From an uncultured Gammaproteobacteria bacterium (GTDB lineage Bacteria > Patescibacteriota > Patescibacteriia > Patescibacteriales > WJLG01): a stretch of DNA of 64,000 nucleotides. The DNA is taken from positions 2,113 through 66,112 of the forward strand of contig CAYNAR010000007.1 of assembly GCA_964395625.1 (NCBI GenBank), given 5' to 3'. Position numbers and translations under genes: made by a program. The notes below the pieces were generated by a model that was given only the letters and a program-made list of their open reading frames with translations, was not told the DNA's origin and made no database searches. Shown here piece by piece: positions 4,281 to 10,548 of the stretch. The first letter of the stretch is position 1; every line of letters begins with the position of its first letter.

Positions 4281-6569
4281 ATGACAAAAAGTAAAAAGGT
4301 TAAGAAGTCTGTCGCTAAGAAATGCGACTGTACTTGCTGCACTTGTTCCCCGATGTCCAAGGAAGGCGTCCTTTTGAACAAGCTTGATGTCAACGGTTAC
4401 ATCAAGAAAAACATCAAACCGTACAATGGTAAGGCCGACTTCTTGTGCGGACCTTCCGACAAGACTAAGAATCTTTGGGAGAAAGCCAAAGGTCTCTTGG
4501 CTCAGGAAATGAAGAATAAGGGTGTCTTGAAGATAGACAATGTCACCGTGTCTTCCATAACCAGCCACTCGGCCGGTTATATCGACCAAGAGTTAGAAAC
4601 GATCGTCGGTTTCCAGACTGATGAGCCACTCAAGAGAGGCATTAAGCCTTTTGGCGGTGTTCGTGTCGTCGAAAAGTCTTGCGAGGAGAACGGCGTCAAA
4701 TTGGATCCGAAGGTTTCGGAGATTTTCACCAAATATCGCAAGACCCATAACGACGGCGTCTTCGATGCCTACACCGAGACCATGCGCGTCTTGCGCAAGA
4801 CCGGAACTTTGACCGGTTTGCCTGATGCCTACGCCCGCGGTCGCATCATCGGCGATTATCGTCGCGCCGCTTTGTATGGTATCGATTTCATCATCGGCAC
4901 CAAAGAGGACGATAAGGCTAAATTGGATAAAGAGGAGTGGAGTGAGGAGTTGATCCGCTTGCGTGAGGATATCAGCGAACAGATCAAGGCCTTGAACGAT
5001 ATCAAGATCATGGCTCAGTCCTATGGCTTCGACATCTCTGGTCCGGCTTTGACCGCTCGTGAAGCTATCCAATGGACATACTTCGCCTATTTGGCGGCTT
5101 TGAAAGAGCAGGATGGCGCCGCTATGAGCTTGGGCAGTGTCAGTAGTTTCTTTGATATATATATTGAAAGAGATATCAAGGCCGGCATTTTGACCGAAGA
5201 GGAGGCTCAGGAATTGGTCGACCAATTCGTCATGAAGTTGCGCCTCATCCGTCATTTGCGCGCCGACGAGTACAATCAGCTTTTTGCCGGCGACCCGACT
5301 TGGCTTACCGAGTCTTTGGGCGGTATGATGTCCGACGGACGTCATAAGGTCACCAAGACTTCCTATCGTTTCTTACAGACTTTGTATAATTTGGGACCTT
5401 CACCGGAGCCGAATATCACCGTTCTGTGGTCGAAAGATTTGCCCGAGACTTTCAAGAGATTCTGCGCCAAAGTCTCCGTCGAGACATCTTCCATACAATA
5501 TGAGAACGATGATATCATGCGCGAGGCCGGCGATTGCGACGATTACGGCATCAGCTGTTGCGTCTCTCGCTTGTCCTTGGGCAAGGAGATGCAATATTTC
5601 GGCGCTCGTTGCAACGGAGTGAAGGCTTTGCTCCTGGCGATCAACGGCGGAGTCGACGAGATGACCGGCTTGAAGATAATGGATGGGATAAAACCGTCCA
5701 AGACCAAGACCCTCTCTTACGAGGCTGTGATGGCCGAATTCAAGAAGAGCGTCTCTTTCTTGGCCAGAGAATACGTCAAGACGATGAACGCCATCCATTG
5801 GATGCACGATAAGTACTACTACGAACGCGCTCAGATGGCTTTCGTCGATAGCGACGTGAAACGCATCGTGGCCTTCGGCTTGGCCGGACTTTCCGTAGCC
5901 GCCGATTCCTTGTCCGCCATCAAATACGCCAAGGTCTATCCGAAGCGCGACGAAAAGGGTATCGCCGTCGATTTCGAAGTGAAAGGCGACTTCCCTAAAT
6001 ACGGCAATAACGACAAGCGCGTCGACGACATCGCCAAGATGTTGGTGAAGATGTTCATCACCGAACTACGTAAGCACTGGATATATCGCGAAGCCTTCCC
6101 GACTCTTTCCATATTGACCATCACTTCCAATGTGGTCTATGGCAAAAAGACCGGCGCGACACCGGATGGTCGTAAAGCCGGCGTCCCTTTCGCCCCGGGA
6201 GCCAATCCGATGCACGGACGCGACACCAACGGCGCTATCGCTTCGCTCAATTCCGTCGCCAAGCTCTCTTATGACGATGCGCGCGACGGTATCTCCAACA
6301 CCTTCTCGATCACCCCGAATACCTTGGGTGCGACCGACGAAGAGAGGACCGGCAACCTAGTCGCTTTGCTTTCCGGATACTTCGCCAAAGGCGCCCATCA
6401 CCTCAATGTCAACGTGCTCAATAAAGAGACTTTGAAGGATGCCATGGAACATCCGGAGAAATATCCGCAATTGACGATCCGCGTCTCCGGCTATGCCGTG
6501 AACTTCGTCCGTCTGTCTCGCGAACAACAACAAGAAGTGTTGTCCAGGACATTCTTTGAATCGATGTAA
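4281..6569 (+). CDS. pflB: pyruvate formate-lyase (glycyl radical enzyme)
   Basis: C-terminal glycyl-radical motif RVSGYAVNF and active-site CC (GISCCVS). The first ATG is at 4281; the track start at 4260 is a TTG. The N-terminus has an unusual Lys/Cys-rich extension. Confidence 0.9.
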
Positions 6570-6580
6570 TAATCTCAGAC

Positions 6581-6612
6581 AAAACCCCGACCTCAATGGT
6601 CGGGGTTTTGCT
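6581..6612 (+). terminator. rho-independent terminator after pflB
   Basis: AAAACCCCGACC / GGTCGGGGTTTT forms a perfect 12-bp stem with loop TCAAT. Confidence 0.85.
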
Positions 6613-6642
6613 ATGAAAATCCATACGAGAGTTTGTTGTCGG

Positions 6643-6743
6643 AAGTGGTAAATTATCTTGGCAGCTATTATGATTGTTAGTAGGATATTTAAGAAAAAAA
6701 TGATTTATTATTAATAAAAAGTTAAAAACGCTGAAAGTAAAGA
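6643..6743 (+). repeat. decayed duplicate of the 3' end of the HUH transposase-like gene (homologous to 9576-9668)
   Basis: A 20-bp block TTAGTAGGATATTTAAGAAA is identical at 6677-6696 and 9613-9632. Flanking blocks also match (GAAGTGG, TGATTTATTAT, AAAACGCT, AAAGTAAAGA). The copy at 6643 has frame-breaking indels. Confidence 0.7.
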
Positions 6744-6852
6744 GTTAACTACGGCACAATACTAATAACTAAATTAATACTTGATATGTATTTGAAATAA
6801 TGCTAAGGTTTATTGAAATAATTATTATTTTAGTATTTTTTGTTTTGAATAA

Positions 6853-7027
6853 ATAAAAAAGAAGATAAATAGAAAAAAATTTGTCTGGGCGTTGTTGATC
6901 CTGCGACGACCTTAATAAAGTTTAGTTAATGTGCTTTTCCTTGTGTCTTGGTTGTTTTGTTTACGGCACAAGTGTACATCTGTGTGCTTATGCAGAGAGT
7001 GAAATCGCTGTTTATCTTCTTTTTTAT
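6853..7027 (+). ncRNA. candidate retron msr-msd non-coding RNA, bracketed by a2/a1-like inverted repeats
   Basis: Perfect 17-bp inverted repeat: 6853-6869 ATAAAAAAGAAGATAAA and 7011-7027 TTTATCTTCTTTTTTAT. It extends to 20 bp with one G-U. GC-rich hairpins at 6887-6911 and 6940-6972 lie inside. The 3' arm overlaps the RT ATG. Confidence 0.5.
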
Positions 7028-8180
7028 GGATCTCAAATTGATTGCAGAGGATAATGTTTTAATTGAAAAATTTAAAAAACTTAGTAGTAGGGATGATGTT
7101 GCTGATATGCTGGAAGTTAGTTTAAAAACTTTGAATTTTTTTCTCTATATAAACAAGAGGAAAAATTATAAGAGTTTTTCAATTAAGAAAAAAAATGGTG
7201 GTGAGAGAATTATCTTGGCACCGGTTTCATCTTTAAAAATAATACAGAAAAAATTGTATTATATTTTAAGTTTAGTGTATACAAATCCAAGACCATCTAT
7301 CCATGGTTTTTTATCTGAAAAAAGTATTATTACTAATGCCTCTGAGCATGTAAGGAAGAATTTGATTTTAAATGTGGATTTGGAAAATTTTTTTGGGACT
7401 ATTACTTTTCCTAGGGTTTTTGGTCTTTTAAAAAAGCCGCCATATAATGTTTCCGAAAAAGCCGCAGTCGTTTTGGCTCAGATATGTACACATGAAGGTG
7501 TTCTGCCTCAGGGTGCTCCAACTTCACCGATTATATCAAATATGATACTTTCAAGAATGGATCGGGAACTTCAGTCTTTGGCTAGAGAGAATAGTTGTTA
7601 TTATACTAGATATGCAGATGATATAACTTTTTCAACTACTCAGCGATTAATTTCTAAAGAAATTGTAGATTATGATAATACTGGTAAGTTTAGGCTTGGT
7701 CTAGGGTTGATTAATGTTATAAATAAAAATAAGTTTAAAATTAATTCTGACAAGATTAAATTTAATAACAAAAGACAAAGACAGGAGGTGACCGGGTTGA
7801 TCGTTAATAAAAAAGTTAATATTAAGCGAGGCTTTATTAGACAAGTTAGAGCAATGCTCCATGCTCTTTATAAATTTGGAAAGAAAGATGCTGAGAGGGA
7901 GTATTATGAAAAATACGTTTTTAATAAAAACACCGGACCATTTACCAGAAATAGAAATTTTTTAGAAGTTGTTAAGGGTAAATTAAATTTTATAAAAATG
8001 GTTAAGGGTTTTTCCGATCCGCTTTATGTTAAATTAGCTAAGAAGTTTAACACGATTTATGGTTCAGAGGCTTTAAAATATTTTGATTTAGGGAAAGTAA
8101 TTTTAGTTTTAAGTAATGAGGATGATTTAAAAAAACCAGAAGATATTAAGGAGTCAACGCAGGGAACGGGATTTTTTTAG
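7026..8180 (+). CDS. retron-type reverse transcriptase
   Basis: Motifs: KKKNGGERIILAP, ITNASEHV (NAxxH), LNVDLENFF, LPQGAPTSP, YTRYADDITFS (YADD at 7611-7622) and QEVTGLIVNKK (VTG). Start taken at MDLK (7026) because the 6948 TTG extension would run through the structured ncRNA. The frame ends ...QGTGFF then TAG on a T7 run. Confidence 0.85.
   Translation: MDLKLIAEDNVLIEKFKKLSSRDDVADMLEVSLKTLNFFLYINKRKNYKSFSIKKKNGGERIILAPVSSLKIIQKKLYYILSLVYTNPRPSIHGFLSEKSIITNASEHVRKNLILNVDLENFFGTITFPRVFGLLKKPPYNVSEKAAVVLAQICTHEGVLPQGAPTSPIISNMILSRMDRELQSLARENSCYYTRYADDITFSTTQRLISKEIVDYDNTGKFRLGLGLINVINKNKFKINSDKIKFNNKRQRQEVTGLIVNKKVNIKRGFIRQVRAMLHALYKFGKKDAEREYYEKYVFNKNTGPFTRNRNFLEVVKGKLNFIKMVKGFSDPLYVKLAKKFNTIYGSEALKYFDLGKVILVLSNEDDLKKPEDIKESTQGTGFF
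8172..8178 (+). other. T7 homopolymer at the RT/protease frame junction (candidate -1 slippage site or indel)
   Basis: Sequence is GGA TTT TTT TAG. A -1 shift or one extra T gives ...GTGFF-LVDYGFVTCWHV... The protease frame is open from 8150. Confidence 0.6.
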
Positions 8181-8194
8181 TCGATTATGGATTT

Positions 8195-8659
8195 GTGACA
8201 TGTTGGCATGTTTGGGATTCTAATATTAAGCCAACGGCATTTAGATATGATAATTTTACCAAGAAAAATACTTTAACACAGACAACAGAAAAACATGAGA
8301 GTATTGATTTAGTTGTTTTGTCGGTAGACGGCTTAAAATTGCAAAAAGATGATTTTTTGAAGATTGGAAAGACTGACAGCGTTAAAATTGGAGAGGCTGT
8401 TAAATGCTATGGTTTTGGTGGATACAGTAATGGGTGCTTACCAGTTATTGTAGAATCACAAATAGATAGCATGAAAAGTATTTCTTCGGTGAAGTATTTT
8501 GTCGTTGGCGGAAATATTCGTGGAGGGCAAAGTGGGGCTCCGGTTTTAAATAAAAACAATGAGGTTATTGGAGTTTTGGTAAAAAGTATTAATGCAGGCA
8601 ATGAAGAAAATTTAGTTATATCAATAGATGCATTAAAGTTTTTGAAAAAAATAAATTAA
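8195..8659 (+). CDS. trypsin-like (S1/Trypsin_2-type) serine protease domain, probably the C-terminal part of an RT-protease fusion
   Basis: Triad: His in TCWHV (8207-8209), Asp in SIDLVVL (8306-8308), Ser in GGQSGAPV (8531-8533). The expected N-terminal GTGFF strand sits in the RT frame. The track start is a GTG with no SD. Confidence 0.75.
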   Translation: MTCWHVWDSNIKPTAFRYDNFTKKNTLTQTTEKHESIDLVVLSVDGLKLQKDDFLKIGKTDSVKIGEAVKCYGFGGYSNGCLPVIVESQIDSMKSISSVKYFVVGGNIRGGQSGAPVLNKNNEVIGVLVKSINAGNEENLVISIDALKFLKKIN

Positions 8660-8685
8660 TCTTTTCGTGTTTTTTATTTTCCCAT

Positions 8686-8703
8686 AACTCTTTTAACTCT
8701 TTT
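8686..8703 (+). repeat. tandem 9-mer AACTCTTTT x2 abutting the left inverted repeat
   Basis: Copies at 8686-8694 and 8695-8703 are identical and lie just before the left inverted repeat GGGGTCAGGTCT (8705-8716). Confidence 0.6.
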
Positions 8704-8704
8704 A

Positions 8705-8716
8705 GGGGTCAGGTCT
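8705..8716. repeat. left 12-bp inverted repeat GGGGTCAGGTCT flanking the HUH gene
   Basis: Exact reverse complement of 9666-9677. Confidence 0.75.
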
Positions 8717-8792
8717 GGAATTAAGACTTTTTTGTTTCAAAACAAGGCAGTTAGTGATAAAATAGAATTATAAAAAATTAAAGGAGGGGAAA

Positions 8793-9659
8793 ATGGCTAG
8801 ACCAATAAGGATACAATATCCTGGTGCTTTTTATCATATAATGACTCGGGGCAATAGACGCTCTAGTATATTTGATTCCACGGAAGACTATCAAGATTTT
8901 TTGATAGTCTTTTTTAATATCATAAAGAGATATAATTGGACTTGCTACGCCTACTGTTTAATGCCTAATCATTATCATTTGTTAATCAGAACTAATGATG
9001 CCAATTTATCTTTAGGCATGAGGCAGTTGAATGGTGTTTACACCCAGAACTATAATATTAGACACAAAAGAGTTGGTCATCTTTTTCAAGGAAGATTTAA
9101 ATCAATATTGGTAGAGGAAGAAAATTATAAATATCAATTAATAAGATATATAGCCTTGAATCCATTGAGAGCCAATATTGTTCAGGTGATAGAAGGCTGG
9201 AAATGGAATAGTTGTTTAGAGGTGATGAATAAAATAGCCATGACCGGCTGTGTGGAGATAAAGGAAATACTCTCTAATTTTGATCAGGACGAAAATAAAG
9301 CCAGGGAGGTGTTTTTAAATTATTTAACAAATAAAATAGAAGATGAGAATAGTCTAAGTAGTCTGAAAGGGGGTATAATATTAGGCTCGGTTGAATTTGT
9401 AGATAAAATAAAAGGCTATTTAAGAATTAAAGAGAAAGAATTAGAAATACCAGTAAAAGAAAGATTGGTTTCCAGGCCATCTCTGGAAGAGCTGTTTGAT
9501 GACAAAATAATAACAAGAGAGACAAGAAATAGGGCAATATATGTGGCGCACGTTGGCTATGGATATTTACTCTCAGAAGTGGCAAATTATTTAGGTATTC
9601 ACTATACTACTATTAGTAGGATATTTAAGAAAGAAAATGATTTATTATCAAAACGCTAA
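8793..9659 (+). CDS. HUH/Y1 transposase-like protein (IS200/RAYT-like) with a C-terminal HTH
   Basis: HUH motif in MPNHYHLLIRT and the catalytic-Tyr region RYIALNPLRA. C-terminal HTH-like segment is LSEVANYLGIHYTTISRIFKK. Strong RBS AAAGGAGGGGAAA. Confidence 0.75.
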   Translation: MARPIRIQYPGAFYHIMTRGNRRSSIFDSTEDYQDFLIVFFNIIKRYNWTCYAYCLMPNHYHLLIRTNDANLSLGMRQLNGVYTQNYNIRHKRVGHLFQGRFKSILVEEENYKYQLIRYIALNPLRANIVQVIEGWKWNSCLEVMNKIAMTGCVEIKEILSNFDQDENKAREVFLNYLTNKIEDENSLSSLKGGIILGSVEFVDKIKGYLRIKEKELEIPVKERLVSRPSLEELFDDKIITRETRNRAIYVAHVGYGYLLSEVANYLGIHYTTISRIFKKENDLLSKR

Positions 9660-9665
9660 AAGTAA

Positions 9666-9677
9666 AGACCTGACCCC
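9666..9677. repeat. right 12-bp inverted repeat AGACCTGACCCC
   Basis: Reverse complement of 8705-8716, starting 7 bp after the gene's stop codon. Confidence 0.75.
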
Positions 9678-9847
9678 AATATCATTAAGTGAGCAGATTA
9701 GTAATTATTTTACTAAAATTCTAAAATCTGCCAATCCTACCAAGGCACCAAACTATTGGACAATGCCAAAAAAAGATAGTAGAAATGCCCCATCAAAAAC
9801 TAATTACACAACAAAACCAGTTGATTTAAAAGTTATAATAAAAAGTA

Positions 9848-10198
9848 ATGAAAAATAATTTTTTGATTAAAAATAAATTAAAATATGCGCTGGGTGTGAC
9901 ACTGTTTGTTATATTCGTGCTATTTTCTTTTTGGCTTACTAGTTTAAATGATTCGGGAATAGGCGGATTAATAAAACAAGGCAATGAGGTTGTTGAAAAA
10001 ATTGAAGATTTTAGAAAGATAAGTGGCCGTTTGCCCGATTCCTTAAAGGAAATTGGTGTATACGAATCCGAACAAGGCCCAATTTTTTATGAGAAAAGAG
10101 GTGATTCCGAATATGCAATATTTTTTAGTATAGGTTTTGATGAGATGAAAGCATATTATTCCGATTCAAAAAAATGGGAAGATTCTTATCGGAAATAG
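9848..10198 (+). CDS. hypothetical membrane-anchored small protein
   Basis: 116-aa ORF with one N-terminal hydrophobic helix (ALGVTLFVIFVLFSFWL). Protein-like composition. No recognisable motif. Confidence 0.45.
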   Translation: MKNNFLIKNKLKYALGVTLFVIFVLFSFWLTSLNDSGIGGLIKQGNEVVEKIEDFRKISGRLPDSLKEIGVYESEQGPIFYEKRGDSEYAIFFSIGFDEMKAYYSDSKKWEDSYRK

Positions 10199-10548
10199 AA
10201 CTTAATTAAATAATGATTTCCCTTTCCTATAATGTATAATTATATAGGAGCATGTAGGTTTATATTTTGTTTTCTCCTCCCGCATTCGCGCTTAGTTTTT
10301 CTGATGAATAGACGATTGTTCCATTAAGATATGATCAAAATGTTTACGTCGGTGGAGTTTAGCCTCGGGCGGGCATACTCGATTTGTTTCTCACATTGAA
10401 GCTGGGCCACTGGTGATCGCACTCTGATATTTCGTGGCGCGGGTCCTTTTCCCTCTAGCGAAAGAGAGAGGATGAAAATTTGTTACTGGCAAGGTTGTCA
10501 GGTAAAAATACGAATGTAAAGAAAATATTAGTTATTTGTTTTATTTTC

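Follow-up and report, generated by a model that had tools for sequence, protein, structure and literature searches.

The locus lies in an AT-rich island (positions 6620-10400; 31% GC, against 43% for the window, i.e., the whole 64-kb stretch of DNA that was analysed, and about 50% for the flanking genes) that holds the putative retron, a Y1 transposase gene, and small ORFs. The features of the retron are collected in Table 1. Its reverse transcriptase (RT) ORF was matched by the PADLOC model RT-Protease_XI with E = 5e-134 and 446 bits over profile positions 3-356 of 510; the runners-up were RT-TIR_XII and RT-Toprim_I-C, and the top matches were all retron RT models. These three models represent the clade-8 fusion types. 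The NCBIfam model retron_Ec67_fus scored 339 bits on the RT part, which is under its 450-bit cut-off. The N-termini of 30 homologues align with a start at ATG 7026; the deposited product P0001 (396 aa) implies a start at ATG 6990, inside the RNA element and its predicted msd, which is probably 12 codons too early.

The effector half of the type XI fusion is also present, although it is out of frame, a feature that an earlier reading of the DNA made from the sequence alone (hereafter, the sequence-only reading) did not mention. The protease-side ORF as listed spans 8195-8659 and matches both Trypsin_2 and the protease end of RT-Protease_XI; the two halves together match that model end to end but do not form a single ORF, as the protease is read in the -1 frame. 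The last codons of the RT frame are GGA TTT TTT TAG (8169-8180), and the -1 frame from 8177 reads LVDYGFVTCWHV... Either a -1 shift or a run of eight Ts restores the fusion with exactly the homologue spacing: the joined product (544 aa) can be aligned over its full length with 30 RT-protease homologues that have a single ORF, and the intact catalytic His, Asp, and Ser (H395, D428, and S503) are invariant in the joined alignment. The match of the joined product to its homologues therefore points to a type XI fusion that was broken by loss of one T from T8 or that is read through by slippage. Because the gene is interrupted at T7, the element may be inactive or decaying. The T7 run is the same in L001, a second public assembly of the locus (an independent Logan contig). 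RT-protease ORFs are interrupted, at different positions, in two other MAG loci (L044 2501-3466 and L066 2501-3691); type XI genes that are broken, or misassembled, are not uncommon.

Several observations concern the surroundings of the retron. Positions 5898-10297, and with them the island as far as 10297, are base-for-base identical in L001, the first differences thereafter being two SNPs at 10298 and 10303, whereas the adjoining pyruvate formate-lyase gene (4472-5897) differs from L001 at 58 positions; this juxtaposition suggests either that transfer was recent or that the assembly mixes strains. Immediately 3' of the retron, positions 8793-9659 encode a 288-aa IS200-like or REP-associated tyrosine transposase (Pfam Y1_Tnp; NCBIfam REP_Tyr_transpos, 71.8 bits, under the 80-bit cut-off). 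The stop codon of pyruvate formate-lyase is directly followed by a GC-rich hairpin and then a T run (CCCCGACC...GGTCGGGGTTTT, 6580-6609), which together look like an intrinsic terminator; the consensus terminator scan did not list it. If it is a terminator, the retron RNA would be a separate transcription unit.

Table 1. Features of the retron locus, in base-pair order.
Feature	Positions	Strand	Basis or remark
Candidate -10 hexamer TAGTAT	6832-6837	+	Read from the sequence; transcript start would be near 6844
a2, outer 5' arm	6853-6872	+	Inverted-repeat search, fold, shuffles; equivalent arm in 30/32 RT-protease loci
Inner a2 helix, ATTT	6879-6882	+	ATT conserved at alignment columns 5-7; pairs with AAAT 7002-7005
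Candidate branching (priming) guanosine G6883	6883	+	By homology
msr stem-loop SL1, loop UGAUCCU; likely RT-recognition hairpin	6887-6911	+	MFE structure, covariance models, covariation
AAnG motif (AAAG here); G6920 is the predicted last templated base	6917-6920	+	Conservation; Eco2 and retrons 1143 and 1163
msd, predicted template of an 81-nt RT-DNA (reverse complement 5'-ACTCTCTGCATAAGC...CTAAAC-3')	6920-7000	+	Boundaries from Eco2 and retrons 1143, 1163, and 1122
msd hairpin, core 6940-6947/6965-6972 (second hairpin of the sequence-only reading)	6929-6979	+	RNA fold
G7001, opposite the candidate branching G; the neighbouring T7000 on its 5' side is predicted to be copied first	7001	+	Conserved TAAGCGA-G-AAT
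Inner a1 helix, AAAT	7002-7005	+	Pairing between sequence-only anchors; constrained fold
a1, outer 3' arm	7008-7027	+	Inverted-repeat search; homologue N-termini place the start codon at 7026
Retron reverse transcriptase ORF, 384 aa, YADD present, TAG 8178-8180	7026-8180	+	PADLOC, Pfam RVT_1
T7 homopolymer, reading-frame break	8172-8178	+	Sequence, homologue alignment; T7 also in L001
Trypsin-like serine protease domain, -1 frame, effector half of the type XI fusion	8177-8659	+	Pfam Trypsin_2, E = 3e-10; PADLOC RT-Protease_XI positions 361-501

An inverted repeat brackets the region upstream of the RT gene

The sequence-only reading had described an inverted repeat of 17-20 bp around a GC-richer interior with two hairpins, and each part of that description was found again. 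The perfect 17-nt core (6853-6869 and 7011-7027) is read directly in the sequence; an inverted-repeat search returned 20-nt arms that are 95% complementary and 135 nt apart, and pairing extends out to 6872/7008 with G-U at 6870/7010 as the sole position that is not Watson-Crick. The 3' arm overlaps the start codon ATG 7026-7028, so that a1 corresponds to positions -18 to +2 of the RT gene. Between the arms, the DNA is 39% GC (43% for 6883-7001), compared to 24% upstream and 26% over the first 270 nt of the RT gene. The minimum free energy (MFE) structure of 6840-7040, the fold that had been proposed as a check, contains the long stem and the hairpins 6887-6911 and 6940-6947/6965-6972; its energy is -56.4 kcal/mol (z = -5.47), and 0/200 dinucleotide shuffles folded as well.

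Because the region is AT-rich and its arms are made of A-runs and T-runs, the chance level was tested directly by shuffling. Dinucleotide-preserving shuffling of 6726-7070 (1000 replicates) gave a mean of 11.9 nt for the longest comparable inverted repeat and a maximum of 19 nt; no replicate attained 20 nt. The repeat is unusual even in AT-rich DNA, but a single-locus p of ~1e-3 would not be decisive without comparative data. Rfam scans gave only chance-level matches, and no retron msr family, over 6300-9000 at E <= 10; over the whole 64-kb window at gathering thresholds, tRNA was the sole match.

The bracket in related loci

One genome per species was scanned for relatives of the RT, returning 80 loci, of which 32 are of the RT-protease type. 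The latter share 33-47% protein identity and come from at least 10 phyla, among them Planctomycetota, Verrucomicrobiota, Nitrospirota, Acidobacteriota, Bacillota, Pseudomonadota, Myxococcota, and Patescibacteria. An inverted repeat brackets the corresponding region in 30 of the 32 loci, where it is the longest or near-longest repeat in the 345 nt around the start; its arms are 8-23 nt long and enclose 110-150 nt, and the arm sequence is unrelated from one locus to the next. Relative to the position aligned to the window RT start codon, the 5' arm of these 30 loci lies 106-205 nt upstream, and the end of the 3' arm falls between 39 nt before and 36 nt after it. Absence of the repeat from related elements would have spoken against the sequence-only reading, and all but two of the 32 have it. 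On comparison of these loci, a bracket that recurs while its sequence differs amounts to en-bloc covariation in the a2/a1 stem.

A -10-like hexamer (5 or 6 of 6 matches to TATAAT) ends 4-12 nt upstream of the 5' arm in 9/31 loci, compared to 4.9% of control positions, an enrichment that fits a transcript starting at the arm. In the window, no TATAAT-like hexamer (at least 5/6) was found within 4-12 nt of the 5' arm; TAGTAT at 6832-6837 is put forward with low confidence as the -10 hexamer, and it was not listed by the consensus scan.

Covariance models and the msr hairpin

Alignment of the related loci revealed a fixed order of elements. The 5' arm is followed by ATT(T)G, 3-4 nt of single strand, and a hairpin with the loop UGAUCCU closed by G-C-G. 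After another single-stranded segment of ~9 nt comes A-A-n-G, which hardly varies; 50-95 nt of variable sequence then lead to a purine-rich motif with the consensus TAAGCGA-G-AAT and to the 3' arm. A covariance model built from homologous loci had been suggested as a further check on the sequence-only reading. Model R1, whose training set was restricted to the 5' module of the 31 type XI loci, was run against both strands of 81 sources totalling 523 kb and scores the window's hairpin at 27.4 bits. It yielded 63 hits at E < 1, 62 of which are on the RT strand and 80-330 nt upstream of the RT match. Thirty-seven hits are in loci outside the set used to build the model, including full-length RT-Toprim I-C loci (L012, L014, L043, and L047), an RT-TIR XII locus (L070), and fusion-less XI-like loci (L028, L041, L033, and L008). 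The R1 module thus sits upstream of clade-8 RTs and almost nowhere else in the 523 kb. Among the 63 aligned hits, the conserved positions of AAnG are occupied by A in 58, A in 52, and G in 59. The sole hit that is not upstream of a matched RT (L044 5732-5776, + strand, 21 bits) lies ~1.6 kb downstream of a Parcubacteria RT-protease gene, and this second msr-like copy may mark a second retron.

Within the hairpin SL1, compensatory changes were detected at 7/7 pairs over 60 distinct sequences. Overall, 87% of cells are paired versus 74% in shuffles, and double changes number 67 versus 16; 0/500 shuffles reached the observed values, and slid registers of the hairpin all score far lower. In the 64-kb window, a broader model, R2, gives the element 32.5 bits as against 13.3 for the next best match, and it is the only hit with E below 1. 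Because the R2 training alignment includes the window copy, this result speaks for uniqueness in the window and is not an independent detection. Neither R1 nor R2 found a second copy of the element in the 64-kb window.

The inner helix and the candidate branching guanosine

The sequence-only reading had named G6872, the last paired G of the 5' arm, with low confidence as a candidate branching guanosine. This assignment is probably wrong, as in the comparative alignment the a2/a1 duplex runs past an internal loop to a conserved inner helix that ends with G facing G. In the window, the loop (6873-6878 opposite 7006-7007) separates the inner helix from the 20-bp outer stem. Anchors for the inner helix were set without the use of pairing: the 5' anchor is the model column after ATT, and the 3' anchor is the G-AAT motif as located by a position weight matrix. 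Of 48 distinct loci, 92-96% form pairs 1-3 of the helix, 81% form pair 4, and 67% form pair 5; the last two use four or five pair types and drop to 43% and 42% after partner shuffling. This covariation of pairs 4 and 5 means that the helix reaches right up to the two facing bases. The base after the helix is G in 37/48 distinct loci, and the facing 3' base is G in 47/48. Since the conserved G that follows the inner helix maps to G6883, that residue is more likely than G6872 to be the branching guanosine and is the best candidate.

In the window, the helix consists of only four A-U pairs, is outside the MFE structure, and costs 4.7 kcal/mol relative to the MFE when enforced. The weight matrix mislocated the 3' motif in the window and in ~8 other loci; G7001 was set by eye from the alignment, and the window therefore adds no independent evidence to the inner-helix statistics. 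The MFE structure pairs 6877-6882 with 6919-6924 instead, which we rejected as the native fold because the comparative data favour pairing of 6879-6882 with 7002-7005. An ungapped search for an a2/a1 helix anchored beside SL1 was also discarded, its shuffled controls giving at least 10 pairs in 44% of trials; it is too crude because in many loci, the window among them, an internal loop separates the inner from the outer helix. Duplex folding of the arms over-extended the duplexes and was used for inspection only.

Note that the G rule is not universal. Six clade-8 loci (L009, L026, L031, L042, L064, and L073; ATTTAAC..., upstream of the RT, at about 2290-2360 in most) have A at the branch position, and the stretch from the a2 stem to the msr hairpin is devoid of G. 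These loci either branch at another site or are primed in an unusual way. With six or more related loci carrying A, the rule behind the choice of G6883 has exceptions.

Comparison with characterised retrons

The Eco2 ncRNA sequence used for comparison matches E. coli S10 at 100% identity beside an Ec67-family RT gene, and it agrees with every residue named in PMC12405507. Retron-Eco2 (Ec67) is of type I-C, with an RT-Toprim fusion, and its structures have been determined by cryo-EM (PMC12405507, PMC12916289). In the order described there, IRa2 leads to rG15, which a 4-nt ssRa separates from a single stem-loop (23 nt); a 9-nt ssRb comes next. Residues rA49 and rA50 are stacked, with rU51 flipped out; the last nucleotide is copied from rG52, and dT1 is linked to rG15 (PMC12405507). 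The window has an RT of the same clade, as its match to retron_Ec67_fus indicates, and the same succession of a2, a candidate branching G, 3-4 nt, a single msr stem-loop, ~9 nt, and A-A-n-G, whose G is predicted to be copied last; the base predicted to be copied first likewise immediately precedes the G that opens a1, and G6883 is placed as rG15. The two differ in that the Eco2 effector is a Toprim domain and that of the window a protease, and in that the Eco2 msr has a 9-bp stem with a 5-nt loop and is without the ATT/AAT inner helix. With filters off, R1 and R2 gave no hit at the Eco2 ncRNA (L082 2501-2632). We therefore claim the same layout and not membership in one RNA sequence family, the alignment with Eco2 being manual. 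The other RT-Toprim I-C loci (L012, L014, L043, and L047), unlike Eco2, do match the type XI model.

Closer counterparts are the retrons of "clade 8, type XI" for which Khan et al. 2024 (10.1101/2024.01.25.577267) validated ncRNAs and sequenced the RT-DNA: 1143 from Nitrospira, 1163 from Ruminococcus, and 1122 from Sphingomonas. Retron 1143, which produced RT-DNA at 0.79 times the Eco1 level (Khan et al. 2024), reads GGGCTTGCGGG-ATGTATT-G-AAGT-CTGTTGT-TGATCCT-GCGACAG-...-AAGG-...-GAAGGCG-G-AAT-ACCCGCAAGCCC (Khan et al. 2024); this sequence, which contains ...TATTG-AAGT-CTGTTGTTGATCCTGCGACAG...AAGG...GAAGGCG-G-AAT..., fits the consensus derived here. Like the window, the Khan type XI retrons combine a clade 8 type XI RT with an a2/a1-bracketed ncRNA directly upstream, and their elements follow in the same order: inner ATT-G, a short single strand, a UGAUCCU-like hairpin with GCG closing, AAnG, the msd, and a purine-rich motif leading to G-AAT or G-AGT. 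The arm and msd sequences are different, however; the outer arms of the window are longer (20 nt), with a 6-by-2 internal loop before the inner helix, and its RT and protease are in different frames.

Toro 2026 described ncRNAs upstream of clade-8 XI-like RTs as flanked by a1/a2 and containing two or three stem-loops with covariation. Those lineages are without the protease, and we liken them to the window by description only; fusion-less XI-like RTs such as L028 and L041 do carry the window's module. For canonical type XI, no computationally identified ncRNA was available in Toro 2026, and none was reported for the type in 2020 (PMC7736814).

The predicted msd and RT-DNA

In retrons 1143, 1163, 1122, and Eco2, the 5' end of the RT-DNA is copied from the base immediately before the G with which the a1 side opens. 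Its 3' end is templated by the G of AAnG in 1143, 1163, and Eco2, and runs 4 nt further in 1122. Transferring these ends to the window leads to a predicted template of 6920-7000 and a predicted RT-DNA of 81 nt; the median predicted msd length in the related loci is 67.5 nt. Folded as DNA, the predicted msDNA has an energy of -4.6 kcal/mol (z = -0.16), no better than shuffles. Weak DNA folding of the msd is common to the clade (median z about -1), and the hairpin seen at the RNA level relies partly on G-U pairs.

Discussion

Positions 6853-7027 are very probably the msr-msd non-coding RNA gene of a type XI retron. An msr-msd flanked by a2/a1 is what the sequence-only reading had proposed, and it is supported by the type XI RT, the bracket in 30/32 loci, the covarying first hairpin, and the layout shared with validated type XI retrons. 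By analogy with these, the transcript would start probably a few bases upstream of 6853 and run on into the RT gene. Its ends would pair, a2 (6853-6872 plus 6879-6882) with a1 (7002-7005 plus 7008-7027), and the duplex would set G6883 opposite G7001. The RT is predicted to bind the conserved msr hairpin at 6887-6911 and to be primed by the 2'-OH of G6883, copying the msd from T7000 back to G6920, i.e., after the conserved AA-n-G stop motif, to give a branched RNA-DNA molecule with about 81 nt of single-stranded DNA. Intact relatives have a trypsin-like protease fused to the RT, and this is presumed to be an anti-phage effector that is restrained by the msDNA. Folding of the unprocessed transcript probably also limits translation of the RT, because a1 covers the RT start codon.

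That last point could be taken as the whole purpose of the structure, namely that it is a mere 5'-leader hiding the start codon and controlling RT translation or mRNA stability, with no reverse transcription involved. The 3' arm does cover -18 to +2 of the ATG, and no Shine-Dalgarno sequence is visible. We nevertheless consider a purely translational leader very unlikely: in related loci the end of the 3' arm varies between 39 nt before and 36 nt after the aligned start, so hiding of the start codon is not a conserved feature; furthermore, what is conserved is the set of elements that serve priming and termination in the validated type XI retrons. In the window, occlusion could well be a by-product. 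The deposited gene call raises the different idea that the GC-richer interior is coding sequence that extends the RT at its N-terminus, as the 396-aa P0001 would start at 6990 and its frame is open from TTG 6948. This is excluded, to a degree that leaves it a negligible chance, by the N-termini of 30 homologues, which align to the M at 7026, and by conservation of the region as RNA structure: conserved elements are also found upstream of 6948, and their distance to the start is variable. An accidental inverted repeat in DNA rich in A-runs and T-runs, or the terminal repeats of a small mobile element (MITE), would be in keeping with the low-complexity arms (A/G-rich and T/C-rich), with shuffle repeats that average 12 nt and reach 19 nt, and with the IS200/RAYT-like transposase gene 1.8 kb downstream. 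However, 0/1000 shuffles reach 20 nt, the window contains no second copy, and the bracket occupies the same place relative to the RT in 30/32 distant loci with different sequences; the comparative data exclude both chance and a MITE, leaving them a negligible probability.

A more serious question is whether the retron still works. The element might be a relic, a retron ncRNA gene that no longer functions because its effector fusion is broken and whose structure survives because inactivation was recent. In favour of a relic are the frame break at T7 with TAG at 8178-8180, the presence of the same T7 in a second assembly, the interruption of L044 and L066 as well, and the weakness of the msd hairpin as DNA. 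We judge it unlikely, as there is only a single lesion, with YADD and the protease triad intact; none of the conserved ncRNA elements is missing, and the long stem departs from Watson-Crick pairing at one G-U only. One added T restores the frame, whether by mutation or by slippage, and the RT alone could still make msDNA. A functional role for the frameshift can also be envisaged, in which dosage of the effector is set twice: a1 would hide the RT start until the ncRNA is processed, and T7 would make the protease dependent on rare -1 slippage at UUU-UAG. Were this speculation, which we regard as quite improbable, to be true, the slippage could be transcriptional or ribosomal, the product would be mostly free RT with a trace of a toxic RT-protease fusion, and the frameshift would be a functional, possibly phase-variable, switch and not damage.

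Read as an msr-msd, the window element is a new example of the type XI retron, a kind for which the ncRNA and RT-DNA have already been shown experimentally. The biological gain is small, as it adds one more, possibly damaged, example of a retron type with documented RT-DNA production. What is added is a corrected anatomy, comprising the inner helix, G6883, SL1, the AAAG stop motif, and an msd at 6920-7000. In addition, a short model derived from type XI loci picks up the msr module ahead of most RTs of clade 8 (types XI and XII and part of I-C), which suggests that clade-8 ncRNAs could be annotated routinely. Such annotation would mend gene calls that extend the RT into the ncRNA, as has happened at this locus.
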